A stretch of DNA of 64,000 bases from Bacteroidales bacterium (lineage in GTDB: Bacteria > Bacteroidota > Bacteroidia > Bacteroidales > UBA1715): contig JAKSUA010000013.1 in assembly GCA_024409235.1 (NCBI GenBank), positions 808 through 64,807 on the forward strand, read 5' to 3'. A program made the translations under genes and the position numbers. The notes beneath the pieces were generated by a model. It had not been told where the DNA came from. It made no database searches and saw only the letters and a program-made list of their open reading frames with translations. Positions within the stretch are counted from its first letter, which is position 1; every line of letters begins with the position of its first letter. This document shows, one piece after another, positions 10,602 through 53,950 of this stretch.

Positions 10602-13600
10602 CTAATCTTTAATCAAAACCTCTTGATTTTTTACTCCTGCTTGTAATGACGAGCTGATTGTTTTCTTTAAAGAAAGTATCTGTTCGTCAACAACGCCTCG
10701 TTTTTGTGGCTTGTAGAGTTTCTTGTATTCACATTTACCAAGTTTGTATTTCAAATCATCAAGATTTCCAAGAACATTTAGTCCGAGTTTAAATAATAAA
10801 GGACTCTTGGTTAATGAAATGTGGTATTTACAAGACATGTCCAGGTTATGATATCCAGAAAGCACTGCCTGATATTTGTCCATTGAAATAACAAAAGGAT
10901 ACAATTCAACTTCGTTTCGGAAGACTGTCATTTCAACATCAAGACTGTCAACTACATTCTTTGTTTTCTTTTTGTTGAACAACAACATTTTGGAAATTTG
11001 TTCGAATGTTTCAGTGTCCATTAAAACTAAATCTTTACCCTTGATAGCTGCAGCACCGCGGAGTGTAGAAAATTTAGGATCATAATTAGATTTTAAATAA
11101 GTTTCCGCCGCTAAGTGGAATTCTGCTTTTCCTGAAAATGATTTCAACATTGGAACGATTGTGTCAATGTCTGGAATCATTTCTATCAAATCATTTACAC
11201 TGATGTCAATTAAGTGGAAATCAAGCCCGGCGAATAGATGATTCTTTCTCGAAGAGCGGTAAATGGCTGTAAGTTGCATTTGTGCCGCATCGCACGTGAA
11301 ACCCATTTCTTCAATAACTAACACTCCGTCACGGATTGTTACGCCACCTCCGGCATGTTCAATAATAGATTTACCAACAAGCGCTTTTTTAATGTCTGTT
11401 TTTAATACAAGATCGACACCAAGAGGAACCATAAATGGATTGTCTTCTTCTAAAGTAGTGTCGGCAGCCTGTTGTTCCTGAACTATTGTATTTTCAGCAA
11501 CTTCGGTTGTGTCGCCAGCTCCGCTGACCAGTTCCATTAATTCCATTACATCAGTGTAGTCGGAAATAAATTCCAGTTCACCTCTTAAAATGTCTTCACC
11601 AGTAAGGTAATCAGCAATATTTTTAATGATACCGGTAAGTTGAAAATCTGAATTACCTAGAATTATCTTGCTTTGTCCTATGTGTAGCTGATTTCTATCT
11701 AATTCGCACTGGATTTTCGATATTTTGATAGGGGCTTCCAATGCACTTACAGCAACTTGTCCCTGATTAAAATTAAATTTTACATCAGGATTCCATTGTA
11801 ATAGGGCATCTTCCTGGTTCTCGTCGTATTCTGCTTTTGCGTCAATGCTGATCATTCCTGTTCTTGCAGAAATATCTTCAGCCATTTTTGCATAAACGCT
11901 GTCACATTTCATTACACATACATATCCGGTATTTTTTCCTTTTGGATACATTTTTACAGTTCCTTTTGGTGTACGTATGTTTGCTGAAATAGTATCTGCT
12001 TCCATAATGTAATCAACATTTTTAATGTCGAAATCGCAGGCAATGGCAACGTCTTTTGTTGTATCCATCACGTCTGAAAGTCCTAATATTAAATCTGTAT
12101 TATTTAATGATGTCTTAAAGAAATCAGTCATAGTTACATTCATGCAGTTACTTACGATGCCAACCTCAATTAATTCTTTGAATTCTTTTGTGTTACGAGT
12201 ACTTGGAAGTGTAACTTTTACCAGCATGTTTTTACTATTTACAAAGGTTGAATCTTCGTAAACTGCATCAAAGTCTGTAAGATTTATTGTACCGTTAGCT
12301 TTGATTTTATTTAAATCAACGTTGGTTAAATCTTCAAGGTTGCATTTAGCTGAGAAAGCAGCATCAGCCCAGCCTGTAGCAAAAATGTATTCAGGTATGT
12401 CGTTCTTTAAATCAAGTAACCACAGACGTGCGTTGAGTTTAACATCAAGGTCCATGTCGTTCAATAAATCTGTAATGTCGCCCGAGACCGAAACGGAAGA
12501 TTTTCCCGTTTTTGCAGAGAAAGAATTCAGTTTGATAGAAGAATTTTTTTCTTCGTTCATGTCAAGATTGATGTGTGCATTTGCAGCAACATCATATAAA
12601 TCATGTCCAAGGCCATCAATTACAATGGAACCGTCGGAATATGCTGCATCAACTGAAATTAGTGGCATTAGAGTATCGTTCATAATTCCTCGTACTGAGC
12701 CGGTTAACTGGACTGTTCCGTCAAGATTTATACCATCAAGATATTCTTTCAACATTTCCTGAGGAATGAGAGGTAAAAGTTTATTAAGAATAATATTGTT
12801 CGTGGCAAAATTCATATCCATACGGATGTCGTCGCCAATCTCAGCATCTCCGGTTAATGAAATTTGATGTTCGTTAATACCAATTAATGCATTGGATAGG
12901 GCAACTTTTAAGATATCAATAGAAGCAACAATTGGCAGAGCGAATGAAATATTGAGAGAGTCAGCATATTTAGTGCTGTCCATTGTTGCAGAAACGCCAG
13001 ACAGCAAAAGATTTAACGTTCCGTCAATTGTATTGAAATCGCCAATATTTCCATTGAAATTTCCTTCGATAGAATTAACAGAGGCTTTAATATCTGTGGA
13101 ATCCGTCATCGAAAAGAGCACGTTTTGGGCATCTAATGACAAATCTGTTGTAATATCATCGCCATTCATAAGAATATTAGTAGCAACATTGATATTGTTA
13201 ATCGATGCATTTAAATGCGAAGGAATATCTATGTATGATGCAGAAATATTTTTCAGTTCAACATCTTCTATTTTCAACATGTTAAACAAAGAAGTCGAGC
13301 TAGTATCTTCCTCGGCTGTTGTATCAGAAACAAAGACATCGTAGTTTGCTAGAGAATCAGCATTTACAAATATGTTTGCTTTTGTATTTAAAAGGTATAA
13401 ACCGTTGATGACAACATTGCTGTTAGATAAATATTCCTTAACATCAACAGTAGCAATAAGTTTGTCAACAAAAGCAACCGTGTCCGACTGAGCACCTTCC
13501 ATTGGGTTTATTAATGCAAAATTGTGTAAACGAATTCCGAAGTGAGGGAACGTGCTGAAGAATGTTAAATCAACCGTGTCTAATTCTGTCTGACAACTGA

Positions 13601-13742
13601 TAAATTCAGGAACATATTTTTTTACAATAGGTGTAAGTTTAGCTGGAGTAAAAACAAACCAGACGGCAATGCAGACTGTTATTAAAACAATACCAATAAT
13701 GGAACCAAGGGAGATTCCAAAGATTTTAAAAACTTTTTTCAT
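10602..13742 (-). CDS. AsmA/TamB-like family outer-membrane biogenesis protein
   Basis: 1046-aa ORF. N-terminal single TM helix (MKKVFKIFGISLGSIIGIVLITVCIAVWFVF), then DLTFFSTFPHFGIRLHNFAL, which resembles AsmA-family N-termini. Long repetitive beta-rich body. Family recalled from motifs, not searched. Confidence 0.7.
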   Translation of the reverse strand: MKKVFKIFGISLGSIIGIVLITVCIAVWFVFTPAKLTPIVKKYVPEFISCQTELDTVDLTFFSTFPHFGIRLHNFALINPMEGAQSDTVAFVDKLIATVDVKEYLSNSNVVINGLYLLNTKANIFVNADSLANYDVFVSDTTAEEDTSSTSLFNMLKIEDVELKNISASYIDIPSHLNASINNINVATNILMNGDDITTDLSLDAQNVLFSMTDSTDIKASVNSIEGNFNGNIGDFNTIDGTLNLLLSGVSATMDSTKYADSLNISFALPIVASIDILKVALSNALIGINEHQISLTGDAEIGDDIRMDMNFATNNIILNKLLPLIPQEMLKEYLDGINLDGTVQLTGSVRGIMNDTLMPLISVDAAYSDGSIVIDGLGHDLYDVAANAHINLDMNEEKNSSIKLNSFSAKTGKSSVSVSGDITDLLNDMDLDVKLNARLWLLDLKNDIPEYIFATGWADAAFSAKCNLEDLTNVDLNKIKANGTINLTDFDAVYEDSTFVNSKNMLVKVTLPSTRNTKEFKELIEVGIVSNCMNVTMTDFFKTSLNNTDLILGLSDVMDTTKDVAIACDFDIKNVDYIMEADTISANIRTPKGTVKMYPKGKNTGYVCVMKCDSVYAKMAEDISARTGMISIDAKAEYDENQEDALLQWNPDVKFNFNQGQVAVSALEAPIKISKIQCELDRNQLHIGQSKIILGNSDFQLTGIIKNIADYLTGEDILRGELEFISDYTDVMELMELVSGAGDTTEVAENTIVQEQQAADTTLEEDNPFMVPLGVDLVLKTDIKKALVGKSIIEHAGGGVTIRDGVLVIEEMGFTCDAAQMQLTAIYRSSRKNHLFAGLDFHLIDISVNDLIEMIPDIDTIVPMLKSFSGKAEFHLAAETYLKSNYDPKFSTLRGAAAIKGKDLVLMDTETFEQISKMLLFNKKKTKNVVDSLDVEMTVFRNEVELYPFVISMDKYQAVLSGYHNLDMSCKYHISLTKSPLLFKLGLNVLGNLDDLKYKLGKCEYKKLYKPQKRGVVDEQILSLKKTISSSLQAGVKNQEVLIKD

Positions 13743-30310: not shown

Positions 30311-30352
30311 AAAATGGCTCAGGGTGTTTCTTATACACATTGAGCCATTTTC
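30311..30352 (+). terminator. Stem-loop terminator after the 203-aa gene, upstream of the giant gene 2 promoter
   Basis: AAAATGGCTCA (30311-21) pairs with TGAGCCATTTT (30341-51), with an inner GTGT/ACAC pairing. Confidence 0.6.
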
Positions 30353-30387
30353 GTTGTGTTAATTTCTTGTTGAAAACAAAAATCGTT

Positions 30388-30395
30388 TATATTTG
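30388..30395 (+). promoter_or_regulatory. TAnnTTTG -7 promoter motif for giant gene 2
   Basis: TATATTTG(C), with TTG-containing sequence about 20 nt upstream. It lies inside the track ORF's N-terminal extension, supporting the ATG at 30484 (MYKFKRLSLVIAALAVSTFSYAQ signal peptide). Confidence 0.5.
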
Positions 30396-30483
30396 CAAAA
30401 TATACTGCAAAAAAGGGTTAGTGTGTAACCTTTTCTCAGTAGAAATAGTCTTGTTGAATAGTATTTTGCAAAATATATTGTTT

Positions 30484-36400: not shown

Positions 36401-39400
36401 GAGATAAAGGTAGTGCAGGTTCACAGGTAGGTATAGACGGAGATGATACTTATACAAAAACAGTTGTAGAGACAACTCCGGAGGGATCTTATCCATATAC
36501 AGTACGTTCATATAGAGTGTTATCAACAGGTGCTAGTTGTTATAGTGATTCTGCTGTGACAAGAGTTGTAGTAACAAAATGTTCTGCAATTGCACCAAAG
36601 GCATCGGATAAATACATCTGTACTAATGACAATAATCCACAAACAGAATTAACTGCTACTAAAGTTTCCACGTTGGAAAGTTCTTATATAGCATGGATGA
36701 GTGAGGATCCTGTTGCAAAAACAAATGATGAAGTAAAAACATTGCTTGAAACAACAGAAGGTGTTGATACAAAAATTTATTCTCCATCTATTGAAAAGGA
36801 TGGAAGCTTAAATAAGATTAAGGACTATGTTTACTATGTTGCAGAATATGATAATGTAGGTAATTGTTGGTCTGCAGGAACAAAGGTAACAATACATGTT
36901 GTGGATACACCTTCTGTAAAAATTACTATGAATCCTGATTATTGTGCGTATGGAACAGATGTTATTTCTATTGATGTGGCGCCAAGAACAGGTACATTAG
37001 CATTCAAGGGTGGTTCTACATCAATGGGAAGTCTTAGTGGATTTGACTGGACTCCAGGAGACTATAGTGGTTCAGAGTTAGAGGGCGTATTTACATATAG
37101 TGTTGTAAGTTCTGCATATGCAGATGGAACACAATGTACATCTGTGCCAGAATTCAAGATTAATGCACATTATATGGATAAGCCAGAGGGAAGCACTACA
37201 AATTGGTTGATAAAACTTGCAGATCAAATTCCTGATCTTCCTGCTTATACTGAGAACAAGCCAGTTGAACCTGTAACTTGGTATTCAACATCTAGTATGT
37301 CCTCAAAAATTGGAGATGACAATTCTTCAAAAACATATTCACCTGGTGATTTGTCTTCAGTTGTGGCAGGTTTAACAGATTACAACGTAAGCTATTGGGT
37401 AACAAGAACAAAAGTAGTAAGTTCTGATTTGAGTTGTGAGAGTGAACCTGCTGAAGTAAAACTTATTCTTGCAGAATGTCCATGGGCAGCACCTCAGGTT
37501 GAGGATATTGTAATCTGTAGTGGTGATACCGATCCATTAACATTGATAGGAACACCAGGAGATTTAACTCAGGCAACAGGTGGAAAGGTAACGGGTTGGA
37601 AGTGGAATACAACAGAAACAGCTGGAGATAAGAATGAATATTCTACAGGACTTTCAAATGTAGCAACAGGAACTGCTTCTGTAACAGAATATATGGTAAG
37701 TTATAAGGCAGAGGAAAAAAATAGTAAGGCCGAATGTTGGAGTCCTGAAACAAAAGTAACGGTAACTGTAAATCCATTGCCAGTTATTGAAATTGATGAA
37801 ATAGGTACTTCATATGAAGCTGACAAACCAGGTGTATTATGTTACAATGGTGGTACATTTATGGCAACAGCAAAAGTAAATGGTGCTGCGGCTGCTGGTG
37901 GAACTTGGAGTTCCGAAACAGCTGGAATTATAGATGCATCGGGTATAATTGATCCTACAAATAGTAAAAATGCTGGAGAACCAGTTGATGGGAAATATAC
38001 TGTTAAGTATGAGTACACTGATGGTAATACCTGCTATAACTCAGAAGAAAAAGATTTCTGGGTAGAATATCCTGAAAATCCAGAAACTGCTAAATATACA
38101 GGCATTGCAGAACCAGATGCAGTTGAGGTTACTGTTGAAGCAAGAAATATTGATGAAACAGATATTCAGACTGCAACTGTAGTAACTTGGTACAGAAGTG
38201 CAAATGCTAAGAATAAGTTAAGTGATGAAAATCCATGGAAAATAGGAACTTCTGTTCTTGACCCTACATCTGTAACAGATGGAGAGGTAACATTCTATGT
38301 TTCACAAACGGTAAATGGATGTACAAGCGAAAGAGTTCCTTCAATAGTGGAGATCGTTGCATGTCCTTGGAAAATAGTTGATATTACTCCAGATGAAACT
38401 TGTGAAGGAACGGAATTCTCAGGAATGACAGCGACTGCAATGGAATCATATAATGGACAGACTGTTGCTCCGTTAAAATGGAGTTGGTCAACTGATGCTG
38501 ATGTAACATCTGCAACAGGCACATTGTCGGGTTCTCCTGTTACATATAAACAAACAGACAACAATACTGTTGGTCGAACTACATACTATGTACGTTATAG
38601 TGCAGAGTACGATGCGGCATCATATGAGTATGGAACTGTTGATAAAGAATGTTGGTCTGAAGTAGCTACAACAACATCTACAGTGTACAAAAATCCTACG
38701 GTTGAATTTGCTGAAAAATCTGGGGCTGTCTGCTTTACAGATGGAGCTGTAAAAGTTAATGTAAAGGTTAACTTAGGCGATGATGGAAGTGGAAATACAA
38801 ATAGTTTGGAAGAATGGACATGGAGTACTGATGGAAGTTCTGAATCGTTCACAACAAAAGAGTCAAGCTATGCATATTTCAACACACTTGCTCAGGATAA
38901 AGCAACAAAAACTTACGAGATTTCTCTTTATGTAAAAGATGACAAAGGTTGTGATAACACAACGACAATAGATGCTGAAAAACGTACTTTGGAGGTAATC
39001 TATTTGGATGCACCAGAAACTGAAGGATTCTACTCAATGACAAGTCAGGAACATGATGTTGAAGTAAAAGTGACTACTGCTGTTGCAGATGGAGCTGTTA
39101 TTCATTGGTTTGGTGATGCTACAACAATGTCTGATTCTGAGAAAAAGAATAAAAATGTTGCAGAGTCGTCAGATAAAGGAAAAACATGGGCTACTGGTGA
39201 TGCATATAATAGAACCGTTTTGAAATCATATTTCGCTCGTCAGTATGATGCTACGGCAAACTGTTATTCAGAGCCAACGGAAGCTATTGTGAAAATCGTT
39301 CCATGTCCTATACCAAATGTTATTGTAGATGCTCCACAAGCTTGTATCTATGATGTTGCCAGTGGTGCTGTTGCAATGACCGTTTCAACTGGAGTTGCTC

Positions 39401-42220: not shown

Positions 42221-42256
42221 AAAGAGGAATTTCAGTTGCGAAGTTCCTCTTTTTGT
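42221..42256 (+). terminator. Intrinsic terminator between giant genes 2 and 3
   Basis: AAAGAGGAA (42221-29) / 14-nt loop / TTCCTCTTT (42244-52), then TTGTTTT. Confidence 0.65.
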
Positions 42257-42358
42257 TTTAAATGGTTGTGTTTGTTTTCAATAGAAGACTGATTCCAAAG
42301 TGTAATATAAACACGTACAAATCAGTGAATTATATTTTGTTTTTATTTATTTTTAATC

Positions 42359-42366
42359 TAATTTTG
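42359..42366 (+). promoter_or_regulatory. TAnnTTTG -7 promoter motif for giant gene 3
   Basis: TAATTTTG lies 36 nt upstream of the ATG at 42402. Confidence 0.4.
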
Positions 42367-42401: not shown

Positions 42402-45400
42402 ATGAAAAGATTTTCGTTCTTATTTGTTTTGTTAGTTGTTGTATATCAGGCATTTTCGCAGTCAATTGCGACGGGTTATACGGTAGGAACTTGGTCGGGT
42501 TTCCGTTCTGCGGCAGCGTCTTTCACATTTGATGATGATGCTCCGAGTCATGTGTCGGTGGTTGCACCGGAATTTGATAAGCGTGGTTTCAATGCAACAT
42601 TCAATGTCGTTGTAAATTGGATGAATCAGTCTAGTCAATGGTCTGATTTTCAAAAAATGGCAGCGAAAGGTCACGAAATTGCGAGCCATACGGTTACTCA
42701 CTCGGAAAACACACCATCGTCGGAGTTAAGTAGTTCAAAAACAACTATCAATCAAAAAATCACAGGACAAGATTGTAATACCATTGCGTACCCATATTGC
42801 AATGTTCCGTCAGATGCAAGTGCGTTGGCTGCAAACTATATTGGTGGCCGTATTTGCGATGGTCAAATAATGGGAAAAACTCCAAGTGACTATTTCAGAA
42901 TATCTGCTATCACAACAGGTAGTGAAACAGGTTTCACAAAAGCTGATGACTTCACGTCATCAATGCAATCTGCTGCAAGTAAAGGTGGTTGGGTTGTGTT
43001 TCTAACACACGGAATTACTGGCGAAACCAATGGTAATGCTACATATTCCCCTACTCCTATTAATGCCATTACTGGTGCACTTGATTGGGCGAAGGAAAAC
43101 GATTCTAAAATATGGGTTGCTACTTTCCGCGATGCAATTTTGTATGCAAAAGAACGCGATGCGCTATCGTTGTCAGAGAAAAAAGTAAGTTCTACAAACT
43201 ACCAACTTACTGCAAGTGTAGGCATTACAAGTTCAGTTGTTACATACGATTATCCAATAACTGTTCGTCGTGAAATGCCAAGTGGTTGGAAAAATTTTGC
43301 GGCTTCAACTGGTGGAAAGGACATTTCGGTAAAAACAGTGACTGTGGGTTCAACAAAATATGCTCAGTTTGATGTTGTTCCTGGAAAAACATATTCTTTG
43401 GAAGATCGCGAAAGTGAATATACAGAAGAAGGTGAAACTGTTGAAGTTCCAAAAATGAAAAATCTCATTGAAAATGGTGAGTTTGATGAAGGAACAAGTT
43501 CATGGCAAACACAAACAGGTGATGATGCAAAATGTACTTTGACAGCGACTACAACGGCAGGTTTATCTGGTGCAAATGCAGTCCAATTATGCCCAGATGG
43601 CAATTATGGAACAGAAAACTGGCATATACAAGTATATCAAAACGTAGAATTAGAGGGTGATGTGGAATATACGCTATCATTTAGCGCCAAAGCTTCTACT
43701 GCAAGGAAATTGTATGTGATGGTGCAAAAAATTGCTGCAGATTATGATACATACTTGTATCAGGAATGTGATTTGACGACAACTGCCAAAGATTTTGAAT
43801 TTACTATGGTAGCTCCATCTGATGTTGCTATGGATTCAAAGGTTACATTCTGTATTGGTGGTTCTGATGGTTGTGTTATGCTTGACAAGGTGTTCTTTGG
43901 TTATGAAAATCAGTCAAGTTCAGAAGGTGGAGGCGACAGACCATCATACGATGTAGAGGTTTCTGGCGGAATTGAAAAATATTTTGTTGACAAGGCGTAC
44001 ATCGGACCAAGTTGCGATGCTCTTCCTGGTGAGGAAGTAACTAATGGTGCATATTATACTGGTGAATACACTAACTTGTTTGTTAAATATCTTGGTAAAA
44101 CAGAAGCGCAGGTTCAAGCAAAAATGAAAAGCGTTTGGGATCATTTCTATACACCAAATGGTCAAAACACGGTGTATTATGAGGCTGGAAGTGACATGGC
44201 GTATATCTATGATACTGGTAACCAAGATGTTCGTACCGAAGGTCAGTCATATGGTTTGATGATCTGCGTTCAAATGGGGGACCAAGAAAAATTTGACAAA
44301 TTATGGCGTTGGGCAAAGAAATATATGCAATATAAATCTGGTGATGCCCGCGAAGGTTTGTTTGCTTGGCAATGCGAAACTAATGGTACTATCAAAGGTG
44401 CTTCTTCTGCTCCTGATGGTGAAATGTATTTCTTGACAGCATTGTTCTTCGCTTCTCACCGTTGGGGTAACGATGGTGCTATCAATTATGAAGAAGAAGC
44501 ACAATATCTTGCAAAATGTCTTTTGAATAAGAGTGGTAGAGGTAATGGTCAAGTTAGTCCATTGTTCAACAAGAGTAACTATCTTGTAACATTCGGTGAA
44601 ACTTCGTATGATTTTTCTGACCCTTCATATAACTTACCAGGTTTCTTGGAATTGTGGGCTCGTTGGATAAATACAAATACTGATTTCTGGGTAAAAACTC
44701 CACAGGCAGCTCGTGATTTGTTGTACAACTCAGCTCATAAAACGACAGGTTTGTATCCTGATTATTGTAACTTTGATGGATCGGGTTATTATCCTAATTG
44801 GGCTGGATACAATACAAGTATTTACAAATATGACGCTATCCGTTGTCCTATGAATGTTGGTATGGATTATCATTGGTTTGCTGCTGATTCTCGTCAGGAA
44901 ACAATGATGTACAACATTTTGAATTTCTTTAAGAAAGATGGTTATTCACACGCGTACTTTAATGTTGACGGAACGGGTGCTGATGGCTATTATTCAGAAG
45001 GTCAAAAAGGAGCAAATGGTGTGGGCGTATTTGGTTTGACTGCGGGAAATGAAGCATTGGCAAAAGAAAATCTTCAAAAACTTTGGGATGTAACGCCTCC
45101 AACAGGACAATGGCGTTATTACAATGGTATGGTGTATATGCTTTCTATGCTTCACGCAACAGGAAACTTCCGTATTTTCAAACCAACACCTGAGGTTGTT
45201 GTTGAAACTCTTTCTGGACCTGCTCCTGTAATTTTTAATGAAGAAGAATTTACGAAAGATACTACTTTCAAAACATTGATAGACTGTAAGATTTACGATG
45301 TAACTATCACTATTGAGGAATCTGCTGCAACATATACAGTAACATTTGAAGATTATGACGGCACAGAATTGAAGTCGGAAGAAGTTGCTGCTGGCGATGC

Positions 45401-48400
45401 TGCTACTGCACCTACAGAACCAACAAGAACGGGTTATACATTCAAAGAATGGGATACAGATTTCTCAAATGTAACAAAAGACTTGACAGTGACTGCGGTG
45501 TATGACATCAATACATACACGGTTACATTTGTTGACTACGATGGTTCTACAATAGACGAACAAACTGTTGAATATGGTAGTGATGCTTTTGCACCAACAG
45601 AACCAACTCGTGAAGGGTATGAATTTGATGGTTGGGACAAAACATTTACAAACATTACGAAAGATGTTGTTGTAACAGCTACATATACAGAAAAAGCAGT
45701 TCCGTCATCGTTAAAATATGAAGCCGAAGATGCAATTGCTTCTGGAACAACAACTGCATCAAGTTCTGCTGCTTCCAATGGTAAGTACGTAAAAATGCAA
45801 TCTGGAAACTTAACATTTAATGTGACGGTTGAAAAAGCTGGCATATATGATGTTACGATTGTATATTCATTAACAGAAGATTACAAGGCTCAAAATTTGG
45901 AAGTGAATGGTGTGCAGGTTGGTACTTTGGCTTTCAATAAATCGGGTAGTGCAAATCCTACTTTTTCAAGTATTACCGCGGCTGCTGCATTGAATTCAGG
46001 TGCAAATACTATAGCGATTACAAATAGCTGGGGATGGGTTGATATAGATTATATTGAATTATCAACTCACGAATCAGTGAAATTCAATATTGATGCTAAT
46101 CTTGTTATAGAAAACCCTACATCGGGAACTGTTGAATTGTATGAATTCTTAAAGAAGAATTTTGGCAAGAAAACTATCAGTGGTGTAATGACATTGGATA
46201 TGCCAGACAATGCATCGTTCAAACAACAACCAGATGTTTCATACATCTATGATAAGTCAGGAAAATATACGGCATTGGTTGGTTTTGACTTTATGCAATC
46301 GGTAGGTAAGGGAACAGATTGGGCTACTACCTACAATAAAACTATGATTGCAATGGCAAAAGAATTATGGAACGAAGGTGGTATACCATATTTCACTTGG
46401 CACTGGCGTGACCCGACAAAAAGCACAAGCTCATTTAATACAAGTGGTGTGTCATTTAGTTTGAAAGACGCATTTACTGATGCAAGTTGTACAAAATGGA
46501 ATACGAATTCTACTTTATATAAAGGAATTATTGCCGACCTTGATGTGATTGCAAATCATTTGTTGGATTTACAAAATGCAGGTGTTTCTGTTCTTTGGCG
46601 TCCATTGCACGAAGCAAGTGGCAAATGGTTCTGGTGGGGTGCCGAAGGTGCTGAACCATACAAACAATTATATTATTTGTTGTTTGAAAAATTGACTAAG
46701 GAATATGACTTGCATAACTTAGTTTGGGTATGGAACTCAGATGGTACAGATGCAGATTGGTATCCAGGTGATAATTATGTAGATATTGCTGGCCGCGATT
46801 TTTATTATCAAGCGCCAAACACCTATAATCACTCTTCGTTAGTGACAGAATTTGAGGCTGTTGCGAAGGTTGTTAATGGTAAGAAAATTGTAACCTTGGC
46901 TGAATGTGGCGCTGTTCCTTATCCACAAAATATGGACGAAGACGGTGCAATGTGGTCGTGGTTTATGCCTTGGTACGACGAAGGTGATATAAAATATGTG
47001 TCTTCCGATGACCATAACAAAGCATCTGACTGGGATTTAATAATGAACGACGACAGAGTTATTACTTTGGAAGATATGCCAGGTTGGGGTTCTGTTTTAG
47101 CTACAACATACACTGTTACATTCGTTGATTATGATGGAACAGTTCTTGACGAACAAACAGTTGAAGAAGGTGAAGATGCTGTTGCACCAGAAGAGCCAAC
47201 ACGCGCTGGCTACACTTTCAAAGAATGGGATACAGACTTTACAAAAGTAAGTGAAGATTTGACTGTTACGGCTGTGTATGTTGAAAAAGCAAAAGCAGAT
47301 TATACAGCGTTGAACAAAGCAATTGCTGATGCGGAAGCACTTGAAACAACAGGTTTCACAGCAGCAACCGTTGCAGCATTGCAAAATGCATTAACTGCTG
47401 CAAAAGCAGTAGATACAGACTTGTTGGCAAAAGACCAAGCAACAGTAGATGCTGCAACAAAAGCGTTGACAGATGCGATGGCTGCTCTTGCAGTTCAAAC
47501 ATTTACTGTAATTTTCGTTGATTACGATGGAACAACAATAGATGAACAAACTGTTGAATACGGTCAATCAGCAACAAAACCAGCAACGGATCCTGTTCGT
47601 AACGGATATGTATTTTCTGGTTGGATAGGTTCGTATGAAAATGTAACTGCTGATGTAACAGTACAAGCAAGTTACACAGAAAAAGGCAAAGCTGATTATA
47701 CAGCATTAAACAATGCAATTGCGGCTGCTGAAAAGCTTGAAACAACAAGTTATACTGATGCAACAGTTGCAGCCTTACAAAAAGCTTTAACTGCAGCAAA
47801 AGCAGTAGATACAGATTTGTTGGCGGAAGACCAAGCAACAGTAGATGCTGCAACAAAAGCGTTGGAAGATGCAATGTCTGCTCTTGCAGTTCAAACATTT
47901 ACAGTAACATTCGTTGATTATGACGGGAAAGTTATTGATGCACAAACAGTTGAATATGGTGCTTCGGCAGTAGCTCCAAAAGAACCAAGTCGCAACGGCT
48001 ATACATTCTCGGCTTGGGAAGGTTCTTACGAAAAAGTAACAGAAGATGTTACTATCACAGCAACATATACTGCAAAAGAGAAAGCTGACTATACTTCTTT
48101 GGATAAGGCAATTTCAAGTGCGGAAGCTTTGGAGGCAGAAAAGGATAAGTATGCTGACGACACATGGAAAGTATTGCAGTCGGCATTAGCTGCAGCAAAG
48201 GCTATTGATAGAAATTTGTATAAGGATAATCAGAAAAAAATTGATGATGCAAAAGATCTTTTAGTGTCTGCAATTTCAACATTGTCGGTAAAATCATTTA
48301 CGGTAAAATTTACTGCTGACGAAAAAATTATTTCAGAACAAATAGTTGAATATGGAAAAGATGCAGAAGCACCATTCAATCCAACAAAAGAGGGATACGA

Positions 48401-50552
48401 TTTTGTTAAGTGGGTTGGTAGTTATACAAATGTTACAGAAGATCTTATTATAACTGCAGAATTTTCAGAAAAGAGCAAAGCTGATTATACTCAGTTAGAT
48501 ATTGCAATAAAAAAAGCAGAAGCAATAGAAGCCTCGCAATATGATGATGAATCTTTACAATTGTTGGAATCTGTATTGAGTATGGCAGATAAAATTGATA
48601 GAAACCTTCTGGCAGAAAACCAATCTGTAGTTGATGATGCAGTTGAGTCTATAAATGAGGTATTGGGTTCGTTGAAACTAAAGACATTTACAGTAACGTT
48701 TATTGTAGATGGAGAGATTGTTGCAGAAAAAATTGTAGAATATGGAGAAACGGTTACTGCACCTTCTGTTCCTGTGAAGAAAGGCTACGAGTTTGTAGGA
48801 TGGAAAGGTGATTATTCAAATGTAATAAAAGATGTTACCGTGGAGGCTGAATTCACGATTCAAATGTTTACTGTAACTTTTGTTGATTACGATGGAAGTG
48901 AAATTAAAAAACAAACTGTAGAATATGGTCAATCTGCTGAAAAACCGGCAAATCCGTCTCGTTCTGGATTTGAATTTACTGGTTGGATTGGTTCGTATGA
49001 GAATGTGACTTCTAATGTGACAGTAATGGCTGGTTATACAGAAATTGGTAAAGCTGTTTATACTAATTTAGATAATGCAATAGCAAAAGCAAAGAATTTA
49101 TCTGAAGATAAATACACTGTAGAAACATGGAAGAAGTTACAATCTGCAATTGTGGAAGCCGAATCTATTGACAGAAATCTTGAAGAAGAGAATCAGTCTA
49201 TGGTTGATGTTGTTGCAGACAACTTGAATGATGCAATAGATAGTCTTGTATTGAAATCATTTACTGTAACGTTTGTTGTAGAAGGAAAAGAGGTTGATAG
49301 TCAAATAGTAATCTATGGAGAAGCTGCAAAATTACCTACAACAACTCCGGAAAAAGAAGGTTATGATTTCGTACAATGGATAGGCAATTATTCTGAAATA
49401 ACTGGAGATGTAGAGATTGTAGCTGAATTTAAGGAAAAAGCTAAAGCTGATTATACAGCCTTGGATGCCGCAATTGTAAAAGCTGAATCTGTGGATGTTT
49501 CCTACTATAGTGAGGCTTCTTTGAAGAAATTACAATCAGTTTTGACAGAGGTAAAAGCAATAGACAGAAATCTGTATTCAGATAAACAGTCTGTTGTTAA
49601 TACAGCATTAATTTCATTGAAAGATGCTTTGTCAAATCTTGCTCTAAGAACATTCGAGGTTACGTTTATTGTAGATGGTGAAGTTGTTTCAAAACAAGAT
49701 GTTGAGTATGGACGTTCGGCGTTGGCTCCTGCAACTCCTGTGAAGAATGGTTATACTTTTGTAAGATGGAGCGACAGTTATTCAAATATTACTGCCGACA
49801 TTCAAATTGAAGCAATATTCACAGAAAAAGTTGTTGTAAATTTAGATAGAACATTGTTGAATTATACTATAGAACAGGCAAATAAAGCAATGGAAAAGGC
49901 TGAAGGTAATGTTGGTAATGCTGCCGGTCAATATCCTGCATCTGCTGTTTTACAGTTCCAGGCAATGATTGAAACTGCTTTAGATGTTTATGAAAATGCG
50001 ACAAAACAAGTTGTTGTTGATAATGAAGTAACAATACTTGAAAATGCTATAAATGTATTCCTGGAATCTGTTAATCCAGAAATACCTGATAAAACAGAAC
50101 TAGCATTATTAATAAAACAGGCTGGTGATATTTTGGACACAACAAGTGTGGGTACTAAACCTGGTCAGTATTCATTAATGGAAAACTGGAATTTAACTAA
50201 TGTTAGAATGGATGCGTCATTGATATATGATAATCCAAATGCGAAAAAATCAGAAGTTGATGCCCAGGTCGAATTATTAAGAAATTCTATAGAAGCATAT
50301 GTAAACTCTGTAGTAAAAGAAGAAACTTCTGCTGTGGAGACACTATTGAACGAAATTGTTATTTATGCAAAAGGACATGTTGTCGTAGTTGAGAATGCAG
50401 ATATTTCTGATGTTCAGATATATGATATTACTGGTCAATGTGTTAGCAGAAATGGTAATAATCAGATTTCTTCAAATGAGATTTTTATTAAAAATGTAGG
50501 TGTGTATATTGTTAAGGTAAAATCAATTTCACAACGAGTTGTAATAAAATAA
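42402..50552 (+). CDS. Giant (2716 aa) multi-catalytic secreted carbohydrate-active enzyme: CE4 - CBM4_9-like - GH8 - 2x Flg_new - CBM6/35-like - GH26 - (Flg_new/FIVAR) stalk - T9SS type A CTD
   Basis: Uninterrupted ORF with signal peptide MKRFSFLFVLLVVVYQAFSQ. Catalytic and binding-module motifs are in the sub-features below. Confidence 0.9.
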   Translation: MKRFSFLFVLLVVVYQAFSQSIATGYTVGTWSGFRSAAASFTFDDDAPSHVSVVAPEFDKRGFNATFNVVVNWMNQSSQWSDFQKMAAKGHEIASHTVTHSENTPSSELSSSKTTINQKITGQDCNTIAYPYCNVPSDASALAANYIGGRICDGQIMGKTPSDYFRISAITTGSETGFTKADDFTSSMQSAASKGGWVVFLTHGITGETNGNATYSPTPINAITGALDWAKENDSKIWVATFRDAILYAKERDALSLSEKKVSSTNYQLTASVGITSSVVTYDYPITVRREMPSGWKNFAASTGGKDISVKTVTVGSTKYAQFDVVPGKTYSLEDRESEYTEEGETVEVPKMKNLIENGEFDEGTSSWQTQTGDDAKCTLTATTTAGLSGANAVQLCPDGNYGTENWHIQVYQNVELEGDVEYTLSFSAKASTARKLYVMVQKIAADYDTYLYQECDLTTTAKDFEFTMVAPSDVAMDSKVTFCIGGSDGCVMLDKVFFGYENQSSSEGGGDRPSYDVEVSGGIEKYFVDKAYIGPSCDALPGEEVTNGAYYTGEYTNLFVKYLGKTEAQVQAKMKSVWDHFYTPNGQNTVYYEAGSDMAYIYDTGNQDVRTEGQSYGLMICVQMGDQEKFDKLWRWAKKYMQYKSGDAREGLFAWQCETNGTIKGASSAPDGEMYFLTALFFASHRWGNDGAINYEEEAQYLAKCLLNKSGRGNGQVSPLFNKSNYLVTFGETSYDFSDPSYNLPGFLELWARWINTNTDFWVKTPQAARDLLYNSAHKTTGLYPDYCNFDGSGYYPNWAGYNTSIYKYDAIRCPMNVGMDYHWFAADSRQETMMYNILNFFKKDGYSHAYFNVDGTGADGYYSEGQKGANGVGVFGLTAGNEALAKENLQKLWDVTPPTGQWRYYNGMVYMLSMLHATGNFRIFKPTPEVVVETLSGPAPVIFNEEEFTKDTTFKTLIDCKIYDVTITIEESAATYTVTFEDYDGTELKSEEVAAGDAATAPTEPTRTGYTFKEWDTDFSNVTKDLTVTAVYDINTYTVTFVDYDGSTIDEQTVEYGSDAFAPTEPTREGYEFDGWDKTFTNITKDVVVTATYTEKAVPSSLKYEAEDAIASGTTTASSSAASNGKYVKMQSGNLTFNVTVEKAGIYDVTIVYSLTEDYKAQNLEVNGVQVGTLAFNKSGSANPTFSSITAAAALNSGANTIAITNSWGWVDIDYIELSTHESVKFNIDANLVIENPTSGTVELYEFLKKNFGKKTISGVMTLDMPDNASFKQQPDVSYIYDKSGKYTALVGFDFMQSVGKGTDWATTYNKTMIAMAKELWNEGGIPYFTWHWRDPTKSTSSFNTSGVSFSLKDAFTDASCTKWNTNSTLYKGIIADLDVIANHLLDLQNAGVSVLWRPLHEASGKWFWWGAEGAEPYKQLYYLLFEKLTKEYDLHNLVWVWNSDGTDADWYPGDNYVDIAGRDFYYQAPNTYNHSSLVTEFEAVAKVVNGKKIVTLAECGAVPYPQNMDEDGAMWSWFMPWYDEGDIKYVSSDDHNKASDWDLIMNDDRVITLEDMPGWGSVLATTYTVTFVDYDGTVLDEQTVEEGEDAVAPEEPTRAGYTFKEWDTDFTKVSEDLTVTAVYVEKAKADYTALNKAIADAEALETTGFTAATVAALQNALTAAKAVDTDLLAKDQATVDAATKALTDAMAALAVQTFTVIFVDYDGTTIDEQTVEYGQSATKPATDPVRNGYVFSGWIGSYENVTADVTVQASYTEKGKADYTALNNAIAAAEKLETTSYTDATVAALQKALTAAKAVDTDLLAEDQATVDAATKALEDAMSALAVQTFTVTFVDYDGKVIDAQTVEYGASAVAPKEPSRNGYTFSAWEGSYEKVTEDVTITATYTAKEKADYTSLDKAISSAEALEAEKDKYADDTWKVLQSALAAAKAIDRNLYKDNQKKIDDAKDLLVSAISTLSVKSFTVKFTADEKIISEQIVEYGKDAEAPFNPTKEGYDFVKWVGSYTNVTEDLIITAEFSEKSKADYTQLDIAIKKAEAIEASQYDDESLQLLESVLSMADKIDRNLLAENQSVVDDAVESINEVLGSLKLKTFTVTFIVDGEIVAEKIVEYGETVTAPSVPVKKGYEFVGWKGDYSNVIKDVTVEAEFTIQMFTVTFVDYDGSEIKKQTVEYGQSAEKPANPSRSGFEFTGWIGSYENVTSNVTVMAGYTEIGKAVYTNLDNAIAKAKNLSEDKYTVETWKKLQSAIVEAESIDRNLEEENQSMVDVVADNLNDAIDSLVLKSFTVTFVVEGKEVDSQIVIYGEAAKLPTTTPEKEGYDFVQWIGNYSEITGDVEIVAEFKEKAKADYTALDAAIVKAESVDVSYYSEASLKKLQSVLTEVKAIDRNLYSDKQSVVNTALISLKDALSNLALRTFEVTFIVDGEVVSKQDVEYGRSALAPATPVKNGYTFVRWSDSYSNITADIQIEAIFTEKVVVNLDRTLLNYTIEQANKAMEKAEGNVGNAAGQYPASAVLQFQAMIETALDVYENATKQVVVDNEVTILENAINVFLESVNPEIPDKTELALLIKQAGDILDTTSVGTKPGQYSLMENWNLTNVRMDASLIYDNPNAKKSEVDAQVELLRNSIEAYVNSVVKEETSAVETLLNEIVIYAKGHVVVVENADISDVQIYDITGQCVSRNGNNQISSNEIFIKNVGVYIVKVKSISQRVVIK
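42470..43150 (+). other. CE4 (NodB-type polysaccharide deacetylase) module
   Basis: NodB motif 1 TFDDD (~42524-42538) and motif 2 GHEIASHTVTH (~42669-42701). Confidence 0.7.
43970..45185 (+). other. GH8 module (xylanase / reducing-end xylose-releasing exo-oligoxylanase-like)
   Basis: DVRTEGQSYGLMICVQMGD (candidate catalytic Glu codon 44238-44240), SAPDGEMYFLTALFFASHRWGN, DPSYNLPGFLELWARW, YDAIRCPMNVGMDYHWF. It is preceded by a CBM4_9-like module at ~43455-43905 (NLIENGEFDEGTSSWQ...). Confidence 0.7.
46100..47090 (+). other. GH26 module (beta-mannanase/xylanase family)
   Basis: FTWHWRDP and VLWRPLHEASGKWFWWG (candidate acid/base Glu codon 46611-46613). LVWVWNSDG and TLAECGAVP (candidate nucleophile Glu codon 46902-46904). 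It is preceded by a CBM6/35-like module at 45709-46068 (LKYEAEDA...WVDIDYIELS). Confidence 0.75.
47104..49830 (+). repeat. Stalk of alternating Listeria-Bacteroides (Flg_new) repeats and FIVAR-like three-helix modules (~132-135 aa super-unit)
   Basis: Eight Flg_new units (F/Y-TVTF-x-DYDG/x-G ... VEYG..A..P..P.r.GY.F.GW ... V..D..v.A.Y), interleaved with six KADYT(A/S/Q)L(N/D)xAIxxAE...(A/S)(A/L)...A(I/V)D(T/R)(D/N)L... modules. DNA segments 47292-47510 and 47688-47906 (offset 396 nt) are near-identical in their 3' halves. Confidence 0.8.
50355..50549 (+). other. T9SS type A C-terminal sorting domain of giant gene 3
   Basis: IVIYAKGHVVVVENADISDVQIYDITGQCVSRNG...IFIKNVGVYIVKVKSISQRVVIK. Confidence 0.8.
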
Positions 50553-50553
50553 G

Positions 50554-51483
50554 ATGCAGTTAAAATATGCGATAATAGGAAGTGGTGGTATAGGTGGACT
50601 TTATGGAGGATTTTTAGCGAAATCAGAACATGAAGTTCACTTTCTCCTTCGTTCTGATTATGATTTTGTAAAGCAGAATGGTTTGCAGATTGATTCGGTG
50701 AAAGGTGATTTTCACTTATCATCACCGAATGTTTATAAAGAAGCCTCTGCAATGCCAGTATGTGACGTTGTGCTTGTATGTTTAAAAACAATACAGAATA
50801 AAATTCTAAAAGATTTATTGCCTTCAATTTTGCATAAGAATTCGGTTGTAATTCTTGTACAAAACGGTTTGGGTATAGAAAAAGAATTGTCCGACATTTT
50901 TACAAATGTGTCTGTTGCTGGAGCTACAGCTTTTGTTTGTACGACAAAAGTTGGTCCGGGACATATTCATCATGCAGAATATGGCACATTGACAATAGCA
51001 AAATATTGTGGAGATTGCGATATGATTTTAAATCAGGTTGCAGACGATTTTATAAATGCTGGAATTCAAGTGAATTTATCTGATGATTTAAATTCGATTC
51101 GTTGGAAAAAACTTGTCTGGAACATTCCATATAATGGTTTAACTGTAGTTTTGAATGCGGCAACAGATGAACTTACTTTTAACACAGCTACACGTTCCTT
51201 GGTAATTGATTTAATGAATGAAGTAGTTGATGCGGGAAGAATTTGTGGAGCAAAAATCTCGGATTCTTTTGTGTCGAAAATGATTGAGATGACAGAAAAA
51301 ATGACTCCTTATTCTCCAAGTATGCGCTTAGATTATGAAGCTCGCCGTCCTATGGAGATTCAAACAATGTACACGAATCCCATAAAAATAGCTAAGGAGA
51401 AAGGTTTCGAGATGAAAAAAACACAGATGTTGGAGCAACAGCTACGTTTTATTTCTGATACCCAACAGACTGTGAAAGAATAA
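50554..51483 (+). CDS. panE: 2-dehydropantoate 2-reductase (ketopantoate reductase)
   Basis: N-terminal Rossmann motif YAIIGSGGIGGLYGGFLA, ApbA/PanE-like length (309 aa) and a C-terminal helical domain. The ATG lies 1 nt after the giant gene's TAA. Confidence 0.8.
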   Translation: MQLKYAIIGSGGIGGLYGGFLAKSEHEVHFLLRSDYDFVKQNGLQIDSVKGDFHLSSPNVYKEASAMPVCDVVLVCLKTIQNKILKDLLPSILHKNSVVILVQNGLGIEKELSDIFTNVSVAGATAFVCTTKVGPGHIHHAEYGTLTIAKYCGDCDMILNQVADDFINAGIQVNLSDDLNSIRWKKLVWNIPYNGLTVVLNAATDELTFNTATRSLVIDLMNEVVDAGRICGAKISDSFVSKMIEMTEKMTPYSPSMRLDYEARRPMEIQTMYTNPIKIAKEKGFEMKKTQMLEQQLRFISDTQQTVKE

Positions 51484-52358: not shown

Positions 52359-53309
52359 ATGTTAATTTTCATCGCCTTAATCCTATCTGTTGTGTTTCAG
52401 CTTACAGCTTCCATAATTGCGGTAAGTCTTATAAAAAGGACTCGATATAACATTGCATGGATTTTACTTTCCATAGGTTTTTCTTTAATGGCAGTTCAAC
52501 AGATGTCAGATTTGCTCTACATCTTTTATCATCTGCAATATTCCAAAGATGCCTCTGAATTTTCAGTAATAAGAAACTGGACAAATGTTTTAATTTCACT
52601 TTTACTTTTTGTTGGAACGATTTTCATTAAGAAGTTGTTTAATTATACGAGAAAGATGGAAAATCTTGCGAAACAGAATGAAAGCCTTGTCTTTTCTGCA
52701 ATTGTCAAGACAGAAGAGAATGAAAGGCAGATGTTTGCAAAGGAATTGCATGATGGGCTTGCTCCAATATTGTCATCGGTGAAAATGGCTTTTTCGGCTT
52801 TGAATAAGGATATAGTAACTGAGTCAAATAAACAGATTTTGCTGAAAACTAACTTTGCTATAGATGAGGCGATTATCACGATAAAAGAAATTTCTAATAA
52901 ATTGAGTCCTCATATTTTATCTAATTTCGGACTTGAACGTGCGGTAAAATCCTTTCTTGATACTGTAATGATAAAGCAACATGCTGAGGTTGATTATAAT
53001 TCTAATCTTGGAGCGGCACGTTTTGATTTTAATATAGAAGCTGTTTTGTATCGTGTTGTTTGCGAATTAATTACAAATACTTTGCGACATTCAAATGCTC
53101 AGCATATTGTTATAAAATTACAGAAAGAGAATGATGAATTGTGCTTGAAATATTCTGATGACGGAGTCGGCTTCGATGTGAAAAAATTACCGATTAAGGG
53201 TATGGGAATATCTAATATTGAGTCACGGGTAAAATCAATCAATGGAGTGTTTTCCATAGTGAGTTCTCCAAACAATGGAATGAGTGTTAGCATACAGGTA
53301 AGATTATGA
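52359..53309 (+). CDS. Sensor histidine kinase (HisKA_3 / NarX-LiaS type) with a membrane-embedded sensor only
   Basis: Three N-terminal TM segments with no sizeable periplasmic loop. H-box ERQMFAKELHDGLAPILS. The HATPase region has N-box ELITNTLRHSNA and G-boxes DDGVGFD and GMGISNIESR. Confidence 0.85.
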   Translation: MLIFIALILSVVFQLTASIIAVSLIKRTRYNIAWILLSIGFSLMAVQQMSDLLYIFYHLQYSKDASEFSVIRNWTNVLISLLLFVGTIFIKKLFNYTRKMENLAKQNESLVFSAIVKTEENERQMFAKELHDGLAPILSSVKMAFSALNKDIVTESNKQILLKTNFAIDEAIITIKEISNKLSPHILSNFGLERAVKSFLDTVMIKQHAEVDYNSNLGAARFDFNIEAVLYRVVCELITNTLRHSNAQHIVIKLQKENDELCLKYSDDGVGFDVKKLPIKGMGISNIESRVKSINGVFSIVSSPNNGMSVSIQVRL

Positions 53310-53950
53310 ATAAGAAATTGCATATACATTTAGTTGATGATCATTCTTTGTTTCGGGAAGGACTGAAGTTTCTTTTGTCAAATTGTGATTTTATTGAAAG
53401 AATAGATGAGTCTGAGAATGGGAGAATATTCTTGGAAAAAATAGAGCAAGAAATTCCTGATATTGTCCTTATGGATATACAAATGCCTGAAATTGATGGA
53501 ATTGTAGCATCTCAGAAAGCAATAGAAAAATATCCGAATTTGAAAATAATTGCACTTTCAATGTATTCTGAAGAGGAGTATTATTCGAAGATGATAGATG
53601 TTGGCGTTAAAGGATTTCTTTTGAAGAACTCACAATTTGGTGATGTGCAAAAAGCAATAATTGATGTAAGTGAAGGAAATAATTTCTTTTCACAGGAAAT
53701 CTTAGATCGAATTATTGCAAATATGTATAAAAAGAAAAATGAGAAGCCTATTTTAGACTTGACAGAGAGAGAAATTGAAGTGCTATATAACATCTGTAAA
53801 GGTTTGTCGAATGTGGAAATTGCTGATATGTTGTATATTAGCAAACGTACAGTAGATAAACATAGGGAAAATTTGCTTCTGAAAACAGAAGCAAAAAATA
53901 CGGCAGGCTTGGTAGTCTATGCGATAAAAAATGGAATTTTCGAAATTTAG
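53306..53950 (+). CDS. Response regulator, NarL/LuxR family DNA-binding
   Basis: REC domain (IHLVDDH...VLMDIQMPEIDG...ALSMY) plus a LuxR HTH (LTEREIEVLYNICKGLSNVEIADMLYISKRTVDKHRENLL). ATGA overlap with the kinase gene. Confidence 0.9.
   Translation: MNKKLHIHLVDDHSLFREGLKFLLSNCDFIERIDESENGRIFLEKIEQEIPDIVLMDIQMPEIDGIVASQKAIEKYPNLKIIALSMYSEEEYYSKMIDVGVKGFLLKNSQFGDVQKAIIDVSEGNNFFSQEILDRIIANMYKKKNEKPILDLTEREIEVLYNICKGLSNVEIADMLYISKRTVDKHRENLLLKTEAKNTAGLVVYAIKNGIFEI

Follow-up and report, generated by a model that had tools for sequence, protein, structure and literature searches.

Does a herbivore-gut Bacteroidales bacterium depend on a polysaccharide utilization locus (PUL) for the degradation of plant hemicelluloses, or may the task be performed by one giant protein that is carried to the cell surface? 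The question is raised by a stretch of 64,000 nucleotides (hereafter the window) from contig JAKSUA010000013.1 of the Bacteroidales assembly GCA_024409235.1, positions 808 to 64,807, which holds an open reading frame (ORF) for a protein of 2716 residues at 42402..50552 on the forward strand. The original prediction, made from the letters alone, described this ORF as a cargo of the type IX secretion system (T9SS) in which an esterase of family CE4 and glycosidases of families GH8 and GH26 are fused, and placed it outside any PUL. The analysis below indicates that the protein is probably a T9SS-delivered surface hemicellulase, in which a xylan unit and a mannan unit are carried on a spacer and no SusC/SusD pair lies adjacent to the gene.

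Architecture and catalytic modules

The gene starts with ATG and runs through 2716 codons in a single frame that no stop interrupts. A frame check together with Pfam and NCBIfam scans recovered the uninterrupted ORF and the module order that had been proposed, which runs from the N to the C terminus as follows (all on the + strand; aa, amino acids of the protein; CBM, carbohydrate-binding module; CTD, C-terminal domain; PDB, Protein Data Bank).

42402..42461 (+), putative Sec-type signal peptide MKRFSFLFVLLVVVYQAFSQ, read by eye
42489..43151 (+), CE4 esterase/deacetylase module, aa 30-250, from Pfam, conservation and predicted fold
43164..43406 (+), beta-sandwich X1, aa 255-335, packed after CE4, from the predicted structure
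43458..43850 (+), CBM4_9, aa 353-483, from a Pfam scan of the segment (54.8 bits)
44022..45182 (+), GH8 catalytic module, aa 541-927, assigned to the xylanase/Rex clade from Pfam, PDB alignments and conservation
45333..45701 (+), two Flg_new (Listeria-Bacteroides) repeats, aa 978-1100, linker of the xylan unit and the mannan unit, from Pfam
45714..46064 (+), CBM35, aa 1105-1221, from Pfam and a PDB match
46083..47048 (+), GH26 catalytic module, aa 1228-1549, from Pfam, PDB alignments and conservation
47109..49835 (+), stalk, aa 1570-2478, eight Flg_new domains and six interleaved FIVAR-like helical modules, from Pfam and repeat analysis
49836..50321 (+), C-terminal helical region, aa 2479-2640, from sequence and module comparison
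50322..50549 (+), T9SS type A CTD, aa 2641-2716, from scans with TIGR04183 and PF18962

The Pfam cut-offs are 23.1 bits for Polysacc_deac_1, 24 for Glyco_hydro_8, 28 for CBM_35, 20.2 for Glyco_hydro_26, 27 for Flg_new, 25.9 for CBM_4_9 and 27 for PF18962. In the whole-protein scan all three catalytic families exceed them, with 49.3 bits for Polysacc_deac_1 (PF01522, aa 39-144), 91.7 for Glyco_hydro_8 (PF01270, aa 601-920) and 192.6 for Glyco_hydro_26 (PF02156, aa 1237-1529). The module that had been called CBM6/35-like is matched by CBM_35 (63.2 bits, aa 1105-1221), and the CBM4_9-like module, which is missing from the whole-protein listing, is matched by CBM_4_9 at 54.8 bits when aa 340-520 are scanned alone. 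The motifs that had been named lie where they were placed (TFDDD at aa 42-46, GHEIASHTVTH at aa 90-100, TEGQSYG, and APDGEMY at aa 670-676), as do the codons of the proposed catalytic glutamates, namely E613 (44238-40), E1404 (46611-13) and E1501 (46902-04). The proposed residues of the GH8 and GH26 modules fall on those of characterised members.

By its sequence matches, the GH8 module belongs to the xylanase/Rex clade. Among solved xylan-active enzymes it matches Rex of B. halodurans (1wu4) at 1.2e-79 with 38% identity, TtGH8 at 1.8e-75 and pXyl at 1.4e-49, whereas the CelA cellulase is matched at 4e-22 and the BcsZ-type glucanases and chitosanases at 1e-7 or worse. E613, D672 and D811 align, on a hand count along the alignment, with E70, D128 and D263 of B. 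halodurans Rex; at these positions stand the catalytic acid (Glu), the second Asp and the base (Asp), and none of them varies among the 14 aligned sequences (the protein of the window and 13 orthologues). All characterised GH8 xylanases form one clade, in which Rex enzymes are a sub-branch, and endo-xylanases and Rex share their catalytic residues (Kmezik et al., 2021; PMC8417218). Hence the sequence places the module in the xylan-active clade and does not separate an endo-xylanase from a Rex.

The CE4 module carries the Asp-Asp-His-His-His set of its family in motifs 1, 2 and 5 (D44, D45, H96, H100 and H203), which is kept in 31 to 32 of 32 homologues and in the whole orthologue set (14/14). 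By analogy, D44 is proposed as the catalytic base, D45, H96 and H100 as metal ligands and H203 as the catalytic acid. An AlphaFold2 model of aa 21-335, with a predicted local distance difference test (pLDDT) score mostly above 85 and about 90 on average, gives a CE4 fold followed by the beta-sandwich X1 (pLDDT above 80 for the most part, with a mean of about 90), to which no Pfam family was matched. Foldseek searches with the CE4 model returned deacetylases and acetylxylan esterases (4dwe, 7ax7, 2c71 and 7fbw). Acetylated xylan is indicated as the substrate chiefly by the fusion of GH11 xylanases to CE4 homologues of 48-50% identity (P0020 and P0029). The xylan specificity that had been put forward for the GH8 and CE4 modules is thus favoured both by the distance between the xylanase/Rex and cellulase matches and by these fusions.

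The nearest structures to the GH26 module are RsMan26C (3wdq; 6.3e-73, 42% identity), 6hf2 (7.6e-55, 38%) and PaMan26A (3zm8; 6e-48). E1404, in the H-E motif of WRPLHEASGKWFWWG, and E1501, in AECG, align with the catalytic Glu columns of the mannanases and are invariant in 14 of 14 sequences; by this alignment the role of acid/base is assigned to E1404 and that of nucleophile to E1501. The suggestion of mannan as the substrate is in keeping with this closeness to endo-beta-mannanases. The best solved relative of the CBM35 module is the CBM35 of the PaMan26A chain as well, and therefore CBM35-GH26 constitutes a recognisable mannanase cassette.

Conservation and modular variation

An identical protein is present in the NCBI database as 'MAG: glycosyl hydrolase family 8 [Bacteroidales bacterium]' from assembly GCA_024500545.1, where MAG denotes a metagenome-assembled genome. 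The head of 1553 residues is matched over its full length, at 63-86% identity, by five more clusters formed at 90% identity. When one genome per GTDB species was scanned, the full head was found in about 11 species-level MAGs at 59-87% identity, some of whose records name horse faeces, yak reticulum and water-buffalo rumen as sources, while others give no host. Module-by-module BLAST gave the same order in all of these MAGs, in proteins of 2465-3420 residues. The domain order, which the original prediction did not recognise, is rare and not singular. A representative search with aa 525-1560 is unusable as a census of architectures, as its 150 best matches are mostly unrelated Flg_new proteins; among these, only P0001, P0050 and the fragment P0052 carry GH8 with GH26 or a part of this pair. 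Across the 14 aligned sequences, no change is seen at any of the ten residues proposed for catalysis or metal binding in the three modules.

The two halves of the head also occur as separate genes in related lineages, as CE4-CBM-GH8-CTD proteins of about 1100 residues in Paludibacteraceae and other MAGs and as CBM35-GH26 proteins of about 570 residues in Paludibacter. Since the sequence of the window is itself from a MAG, the long ORF might be taken for an artefact, either a chimera of the assembly or a read-through of a CE4-GH8 gene and a CBM35-GH26 gene. This is extremely improbable, as the same junction and order are found in about 11 independently assembled MAGs of different studies and hosts, at the above identities. 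The stalk argues in the same direction. Its DNA has a period of 393-396 nt with units that are merely 65-83% identical, and Tandem Repeats Finder reported no array in it, the units being too diverged, so that they were characterised by repeat search and by eye; repeat collapse or mis-joining is therefore unlikely, and by its sequence the stalk is an old repeat array and not a product of the assembly. On the independent MAGs and the diverged repeats together, an assembly chimera is rejected.

Three of the orthologues contain an additional module. A GH11 xylanase (111 bits) is inserted between CBM4_9 and GH8 in one of them (L010:2002-2838), a second GH8 with a Flg_new repeat is inserted at a linker in another (L013:1830-3473), and a SASA acetylesterase (153 bits) is found at a linker in the third (L084:6995-7759; L084/P0006). 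Each of these insertions results in a protein with four catalytic modules. As all three are related to xylan, they support the xylan assignment of the N-terminal half.

The CE4 module appears to be mosaic among the orthologues. Its identity is 81-91% in L001-L005, L011 and L082-L084 and 44-49% in L006-L010 and L013, while the GH8 (67-75%) and GH26 (60-66%) modules of the latter group are as similar to those of the window as are those of the subgroup L005 and L082-L084. The low CE4 identity despite ordinary GH8 and GH26 identity suggests, from the sequences, that the CE4 module was replaced in one sub-lineage.

The large share of non-catalytic sequence, about 40% of the protein, could be read as the mark of an adhesin, one that would fasten the cell to plant particles by means of its CBMs and its Flg_new/FIVAR array and in which catalysis is secondary or lost. 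Flg_new and FIVAR domains are typical of surface and adhesion proteins, and NCBIfam gives partial matches of the protein to the internalin A and ZmpB models. The conservation makes a mainly adhesive role very unlikely, since orthologues of 59-87% identity keep every catalytic residue of the three modules, the catalytic modules are conserved as well as the rest or better, and the insertions add catalytic modules.

Stalk and secretion

The repeat stalk had been estimated at 2.7 kb and measures 2.73 kb; a further helical region of 162 residues lies between it and the 76-residue CTD. Flg_new is matched by Pfam in ten stretches of the protein with 285 bits in total, and FIVAR reaches 40 bits when summed, with no single stretch above the cut-off. 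Within the stalk, six helical modules of about 70 residues each alternate with the eight Flg_new domains.

The C-terminus passes the cut-off of the T9SS type A model TIGR04183 (24.6 against 23, aa 2661-2716), and orthologue CTDs score 25.4 and 33.5 with the same model, so the sorting domain that had been claimed is recovered in the query and in its relatives. At the N-terminus, MKRFSFLFVLLVVVYQAFSQ looks by eye like a typical Sec signal peptide, and as it contains no Cys it is not a lipoprotein signal. A PorZ-like ORF near one orthologue and the CTD-like ends of two neighbouring giant ORFs in the window point indirectly to T9SS machinery in the genome.

In a related genome, more T9SS cargo is encoded beside the orthologue (L001:863-5791), including a 912-residue protein with GH8, DUF4972 and a CTD. 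This cargo shares the pre-CTD helical region at 25-35% identity, which suggests, on sequence, that the clade has a common C-terminal cassette of helical region plus CTD.

From these parts, the following course may be proposed for a cell-surface hemicellulase of about 300 kDa in an uncultured herbivore-gut Bacteroidales bacterium. The Sec signal peptide would direct the protein to the periplasm, and by analogy with characterised T9SS cargo the CTD would be cleaved off and the protein would become anchored to the outer membrane or else be released. Some 1070 residues beside the CTD (Flg_new domains, three-helix modules and helical region) may serve as a spacer which holds the two-part catalytic head off the cell. 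In the N-terminal xylan unit, a predicted metal-dependent CE4 acetyl esterase would act with CBM4_9 and an inverting GH8 of the xylanase/Rex clade; in the mannan unit, CBM35 would act with a retaining GH26 endo-beta-1,4-mannanase. Both units together could strip the two main hemicelluloses of the plant cell wall, and an adjacent SusC/SusD pair would not be involved in this.

Genomic context and the PUL question

Family scans of the window covered ORFs of at least 150 residues, and among these no match was found to TonB-dependent receptors/SusC, SusD, hybrid two-component systems, extracytoplasmic function (ECF) sigma factors, anti-sigma factors or SusR-type regulators. The statement that the window holds no SusC/SusD, hybrid two-component sensor or ECF/anti-sigma pair is thereby upheld. 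A phmmer search with SusC and SusD seeds from Paludibacter loci was extended over 318 kb, that is, the window and 14 orthologue loci, and found one lone SusC-like receptor and zero SusD. The same seeds detected the SusC and SusD of a fourth Paludibacter locus (L021), which was no source of seeds and served as the positive control. The location outside any PUL therefore holds for the window and across the orthologue loci; independence in the genome as a whole would be an extrapolation from these 318 kb.

A SusC-sized ORF of 1046 residues at 10602..13742 (-) was considered as a SusC and rejected, since it has no Plug, TonB-dependent receptor or other Pfam or NCBIfam match and no match to the SusC seeds. 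The sole regulator pair of the window is a classical two-component pair at 52359..53950 (+), 1.8 kb downstream of the gene, with a HisKA_3 kinase and a LuxR-type response regulator.

Observations against the proposed function

Several observations weigh against the reading of the protein as a PUL-independent, T9SS-delivered hemicellulase. With respect to the CE4 module, matches to PDB sequences are weak, reaching two acetylxylan-esterase CE4 domains through motifs 1-2 alone. The Arg of motif 3 (RxPY) is absent, being replaced by A-Y-P-Y here and by (A/T/V)-Y-P-(N/Y) in 32 of 32 homologues; by this distribution its loss looks like a trait of the subfamily and not decay. The modelled fold is of the NodB type, which does not discriminate xylan esterases from chitin or peptidoglycan deacetylases. 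With respect to GH8, the top PDB match by phmmer is 22gt (E 2.5e-139, 56% identity), an entry which the depositors label 'cellulase'. The Leu-His-Pro loop of Rex enzymes, which contains His319 in B. halodurans and closes subsite +2, is not present: the query has Tyr-Tyr-Ser and all the orthologues x-Tyr-Ser/Asn. Its absence bears on the mode of action on xylan and is the reason why the module is not filed as a Rex. With respect to secretion, the CTD scores are marginal, as PF18962 scanned alone gives 26.3 against a cut-off of 27, and core T9SS genes were not found in the 64-kb window. With respect to the PUL question, the window covers 64 kb of a contig of about 71 kb, and other parts of the genome may hold SusC/SusD pairs. 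In addition, the lone receptor mentioned above (L007:19823-22774, -), a SusC-like TonB-dependent receptor that has the domains CarboxypepD_reg and Plug and is matched by the Paludibacter SusC seeds at 362 bits, lies 1.1 kb downstream of an orthologue.

The label of 22gt raises the prospect that GH8 and CBM4_9 act on beta-glucans (cellulose or mixed-linkage glucan), which would turn the protein into a glucanase-mannanase. The nearest solved relatives of the CBM4 module, the laminarinase CBM4-2 and the CBM4 modules of CbhA and CenC, likewise bind beta-glucans. Such a specificity is nevertheless unlikely. The xylan-active GH8 enzymes are matched at 1e-79 to 1e-49 against 4e-22 to 1e-7 for the cellulases and BcsZ-type enzymes, and 'cellulase' is a common default name for GH8 proteins. 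The enzymes that occur fused in this family (CE4, GH11 and the SASA esterase) are directed at xylan, and the characterised GH8 xylanases and Rex enzymes constitute the single clade already mentioned (PMC8417218).

The receptor near the orthologue and the limited stretch of genome in view leave room for another organisation, in which the protein, displayed by way of the T9SS, is the front-end of a Sus-like system whose genes lie at other places in the genome, and distant SusC/SusD pairs import the oligosaccharides. In Flavobacterium johnsoniae, for example, a chitin utilisation locus acts together with ChiA, a chitinase secreted through the T9SS. Related Paludibacter genomes place CBM35-GH26 in classic PULs, the stand-alone gene directly following SusC, SusD and a surface glycan-binding protein, and for comparable rumen bacteria transporters of the products could not be identified either (Naas et al., 2018; PMC5831590). 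Dependence on a distant Sus-like system is possible, though we consider it rather unlikely. Not one SusD was found in the 318 kb, the L007 receptor is followed by a PAP2 phosphatase gene and not by SusD, with a CHU_C-type T9SS cargo nearby, and the conserved neighbours of the gene are a giant RCC1/Ig_7 protein and panE rather than transport genes. Moreover, rumen Bacteroidales which are devoid of PULs and carry similar cargo are documented (PMC5831590).

Relation to known systems

The reading of the protein as a T9SS cargo that acts apart from local PULs finds its closest parallel in those rumen bacteria. Bacteroidales of the group Ca. MH11, which lack archetypal PULs, encode many T9SS-tagged multi-catalytic carbohydrate-active enzymes, such as GH8-CBM6-GH11 and GH5-GH26 (Naas et al., 2018; PMC5831590). 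Table S3 of that work lists for UBA4369 a 1069-residue CE4+GH8+CTD protein, a GH11+CBM6+GH8+CTD protein and a GH26-CBM35-GH26+CTD protein, and a GH11+CE4 protein is tabulated as well. Like 'Candidatus Paraporphyromonas polyenzymogenes'/Ca. MH11, the present bacterium is a gut Bacteroidales of herbivores in which catalytic modules and CBMs are joined on one chain that ends in a CTD, away from SusC/SusD. The original prediction had drawn the same comparison, and the three intact catalytic modules with the CTD, the syntenic housekeeping neighbourhood, the rumen and hindgut sources of the MAGs and the match to the strategy reported there agree with it. The protein differs in that it joins CE4, GH8 and GH26, which none of the listed Ca. 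MH11 proteins examined does; those examined reach at most about 1950 residues, which leaves no room for a comparable stalk of 1000 residues. The seven MH11 genomes of that report include neither UBA1715 nor UBA3754, two MAGs in which an orthologue was found. As multi-catalytic T9SS enzymes including CE4+GH8+CTD were already described there, the protein is a real and well conserved, larger fused member of an enzyme class known from rumen bacteria.

The CE4-CBM-GH8-CTD proteins of about 1100 residues (P0007-P0019; L012 and L014-L020) share the N-terminal half, with 36-54% identity in CE4 and 45-73% in GH8, and likewise end in a Por_Secre_tail domain. They differ in carrying F5/8 type C modules (PF00754/PF22633) instead of CBM4_9, and they stop right after GH8, without Flg_new, CBM35, GH26 or stalk. 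Similarly, BeCE15A-Rex8A of Bacteroides eggerthii has an esterase N-terminal to a GH8 of the xylanase/Rex clade with the same three catalytic residues, and the action of a GH11 xylanase is enhanced by its GH8 domain (Kmezik et al., 2021; PMC8417218). In contrast to the present protein, its esterase belongs to CE15 instead of CE4, its gene lies in a PUL, its predicted location is the periplasm, and it has only two catalytic modules, with no GH26, stalk or CTD (PMC8417218).

The Rex enzymes 1wu4 and PbRex8A (6shy) share the Glu/Asp/Asp set with the GH8 module; they possess the Leu-His-Pro loop in place of Tyr-Tyr-Ser, whereas the present protein is also predicted to be secreted and has CBMs. Known CBM35-GH26 mannanases are PaMan26A and the cow rumen GH26 (6ueh), to which the GH26 domains of RsMan26C and 6hf2 are related. 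PaMan26A, RsMan26C and 6hf2 share both catalytic Glu residues with the present protein, and the PaMan26A chain is matched by CBM35 and GH26 in the same order. Those mannanases are stand-alone or two-module enzymes, and the stand-alone relatives in Paludibacter are PUL-encoded, whereas here the pair sits in the middle of a chain of 2716 residues. A literature search found no description of a CE4-GH8-GH26 fusion on a long stalk with such modular variants, and nothing specific among later work on T9SS multi-catalytic rumen enzymes.

If the reading is true, PUL-independent fibre degradation based on the T9SS extends beyond the rumen to hindgut fermenters such as the horse, and combined xylan-mannan hemicellulases join the cellulases already known in this strategy. 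As the catalytic modules of the orthologues number three, four or more and share their insertion points, the series offers a ready-made set on which the synergy of covalently linked modules may be tested, a question which the published multi-catalytic enzymes leave open (PMC8417218). The protein is also a candidate source of enzymes for feed and biomass. The current picture of glycan degradation in Bacteroidota stays unchanged by it and specialists would not be surprised; it represents a sound candidate for biochemistry. A bolder proposal, which is doubtful as it stands, is that the protein is the core hemicellulose device of a clade of uncultured, PUL-less herbivore-gut Bacteroidales (classified here only to the order level). 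It would then be a cell-anchored, single-chain 'hemicellulosome' into which modules are plugged at fixed linkers (GH11, a second GH8, SASA, with CE4 swapped), with true intramolecular synergy between xylan and mannan degradation on intact walls and a GH8 specificity that is neither that of a classical Rex nor that of an endo-xylanase.

Transcription and neighbouring genes

Three features flank the gene.

42221..42252 (+), terminator-like hairpin of 13 pairs with a T-run, after the upstream 3952-residue ORF, from a terminator scan of the sequence
42336..42366 (+), candidate Bacteroidota promoter with TTTG at 42336, a 19-nt spacer and TAATTTTG at 42359-42366, 36 nt before the ATG, found by eye
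50554..51483 (+), panE/ApbA ketopantoate reductase gene, starting 1 nt past the stop of the hemicellulase gene, from Pfam and synteny

The terminator-like hairpin separates the gene from the upstream ORF, which suggests that it has its own transcription start. The TTTG/TAATTTTG candidate was judged against the -33/-7 promoter consensus of Bacteroidota. A sigma-70 promoter scan, which is unsuited to Bacteroidota, gave 36 sites against 37.9 expected in shuffles and hence no enrichment. On the downstream side, the gap of 1 nt, the lack of a terminator-like site between the stop and panE, and the presence of panE downstream of the orthologues in L001 and L082 make the co-transcription of the two genes likely. 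The pairing of a housekeeping gene such as panE with the gene of a huge secreted enzyme is odd, yet it is conserved.

The remaining neighbours are housekeeping genes and two other giant ORFs with CTD-like ends. The upstream ORF of 3952 residues, at 30340-42198 (+), encodes an RCC1-like beta-propeller and CHU_C-associated Ig_7 repeats, with a weak match to a T9SS type B sorting domain at its C-terminus (26.4 bits against a cut-off of 35); a giant RCC1/Ig_7 protein is also encoded upstream of the orthologue in L083 and in L084, so that the synteny is conserved. The other ORF, of 3382 residues at 66-10214 (+), has Ig-like (Pom152-like) repeats and ends in a type A sorting domain (TIGR04183, 29.1 bits), and it represents a third giant predicted T9SS cargo within the same 64 kb.

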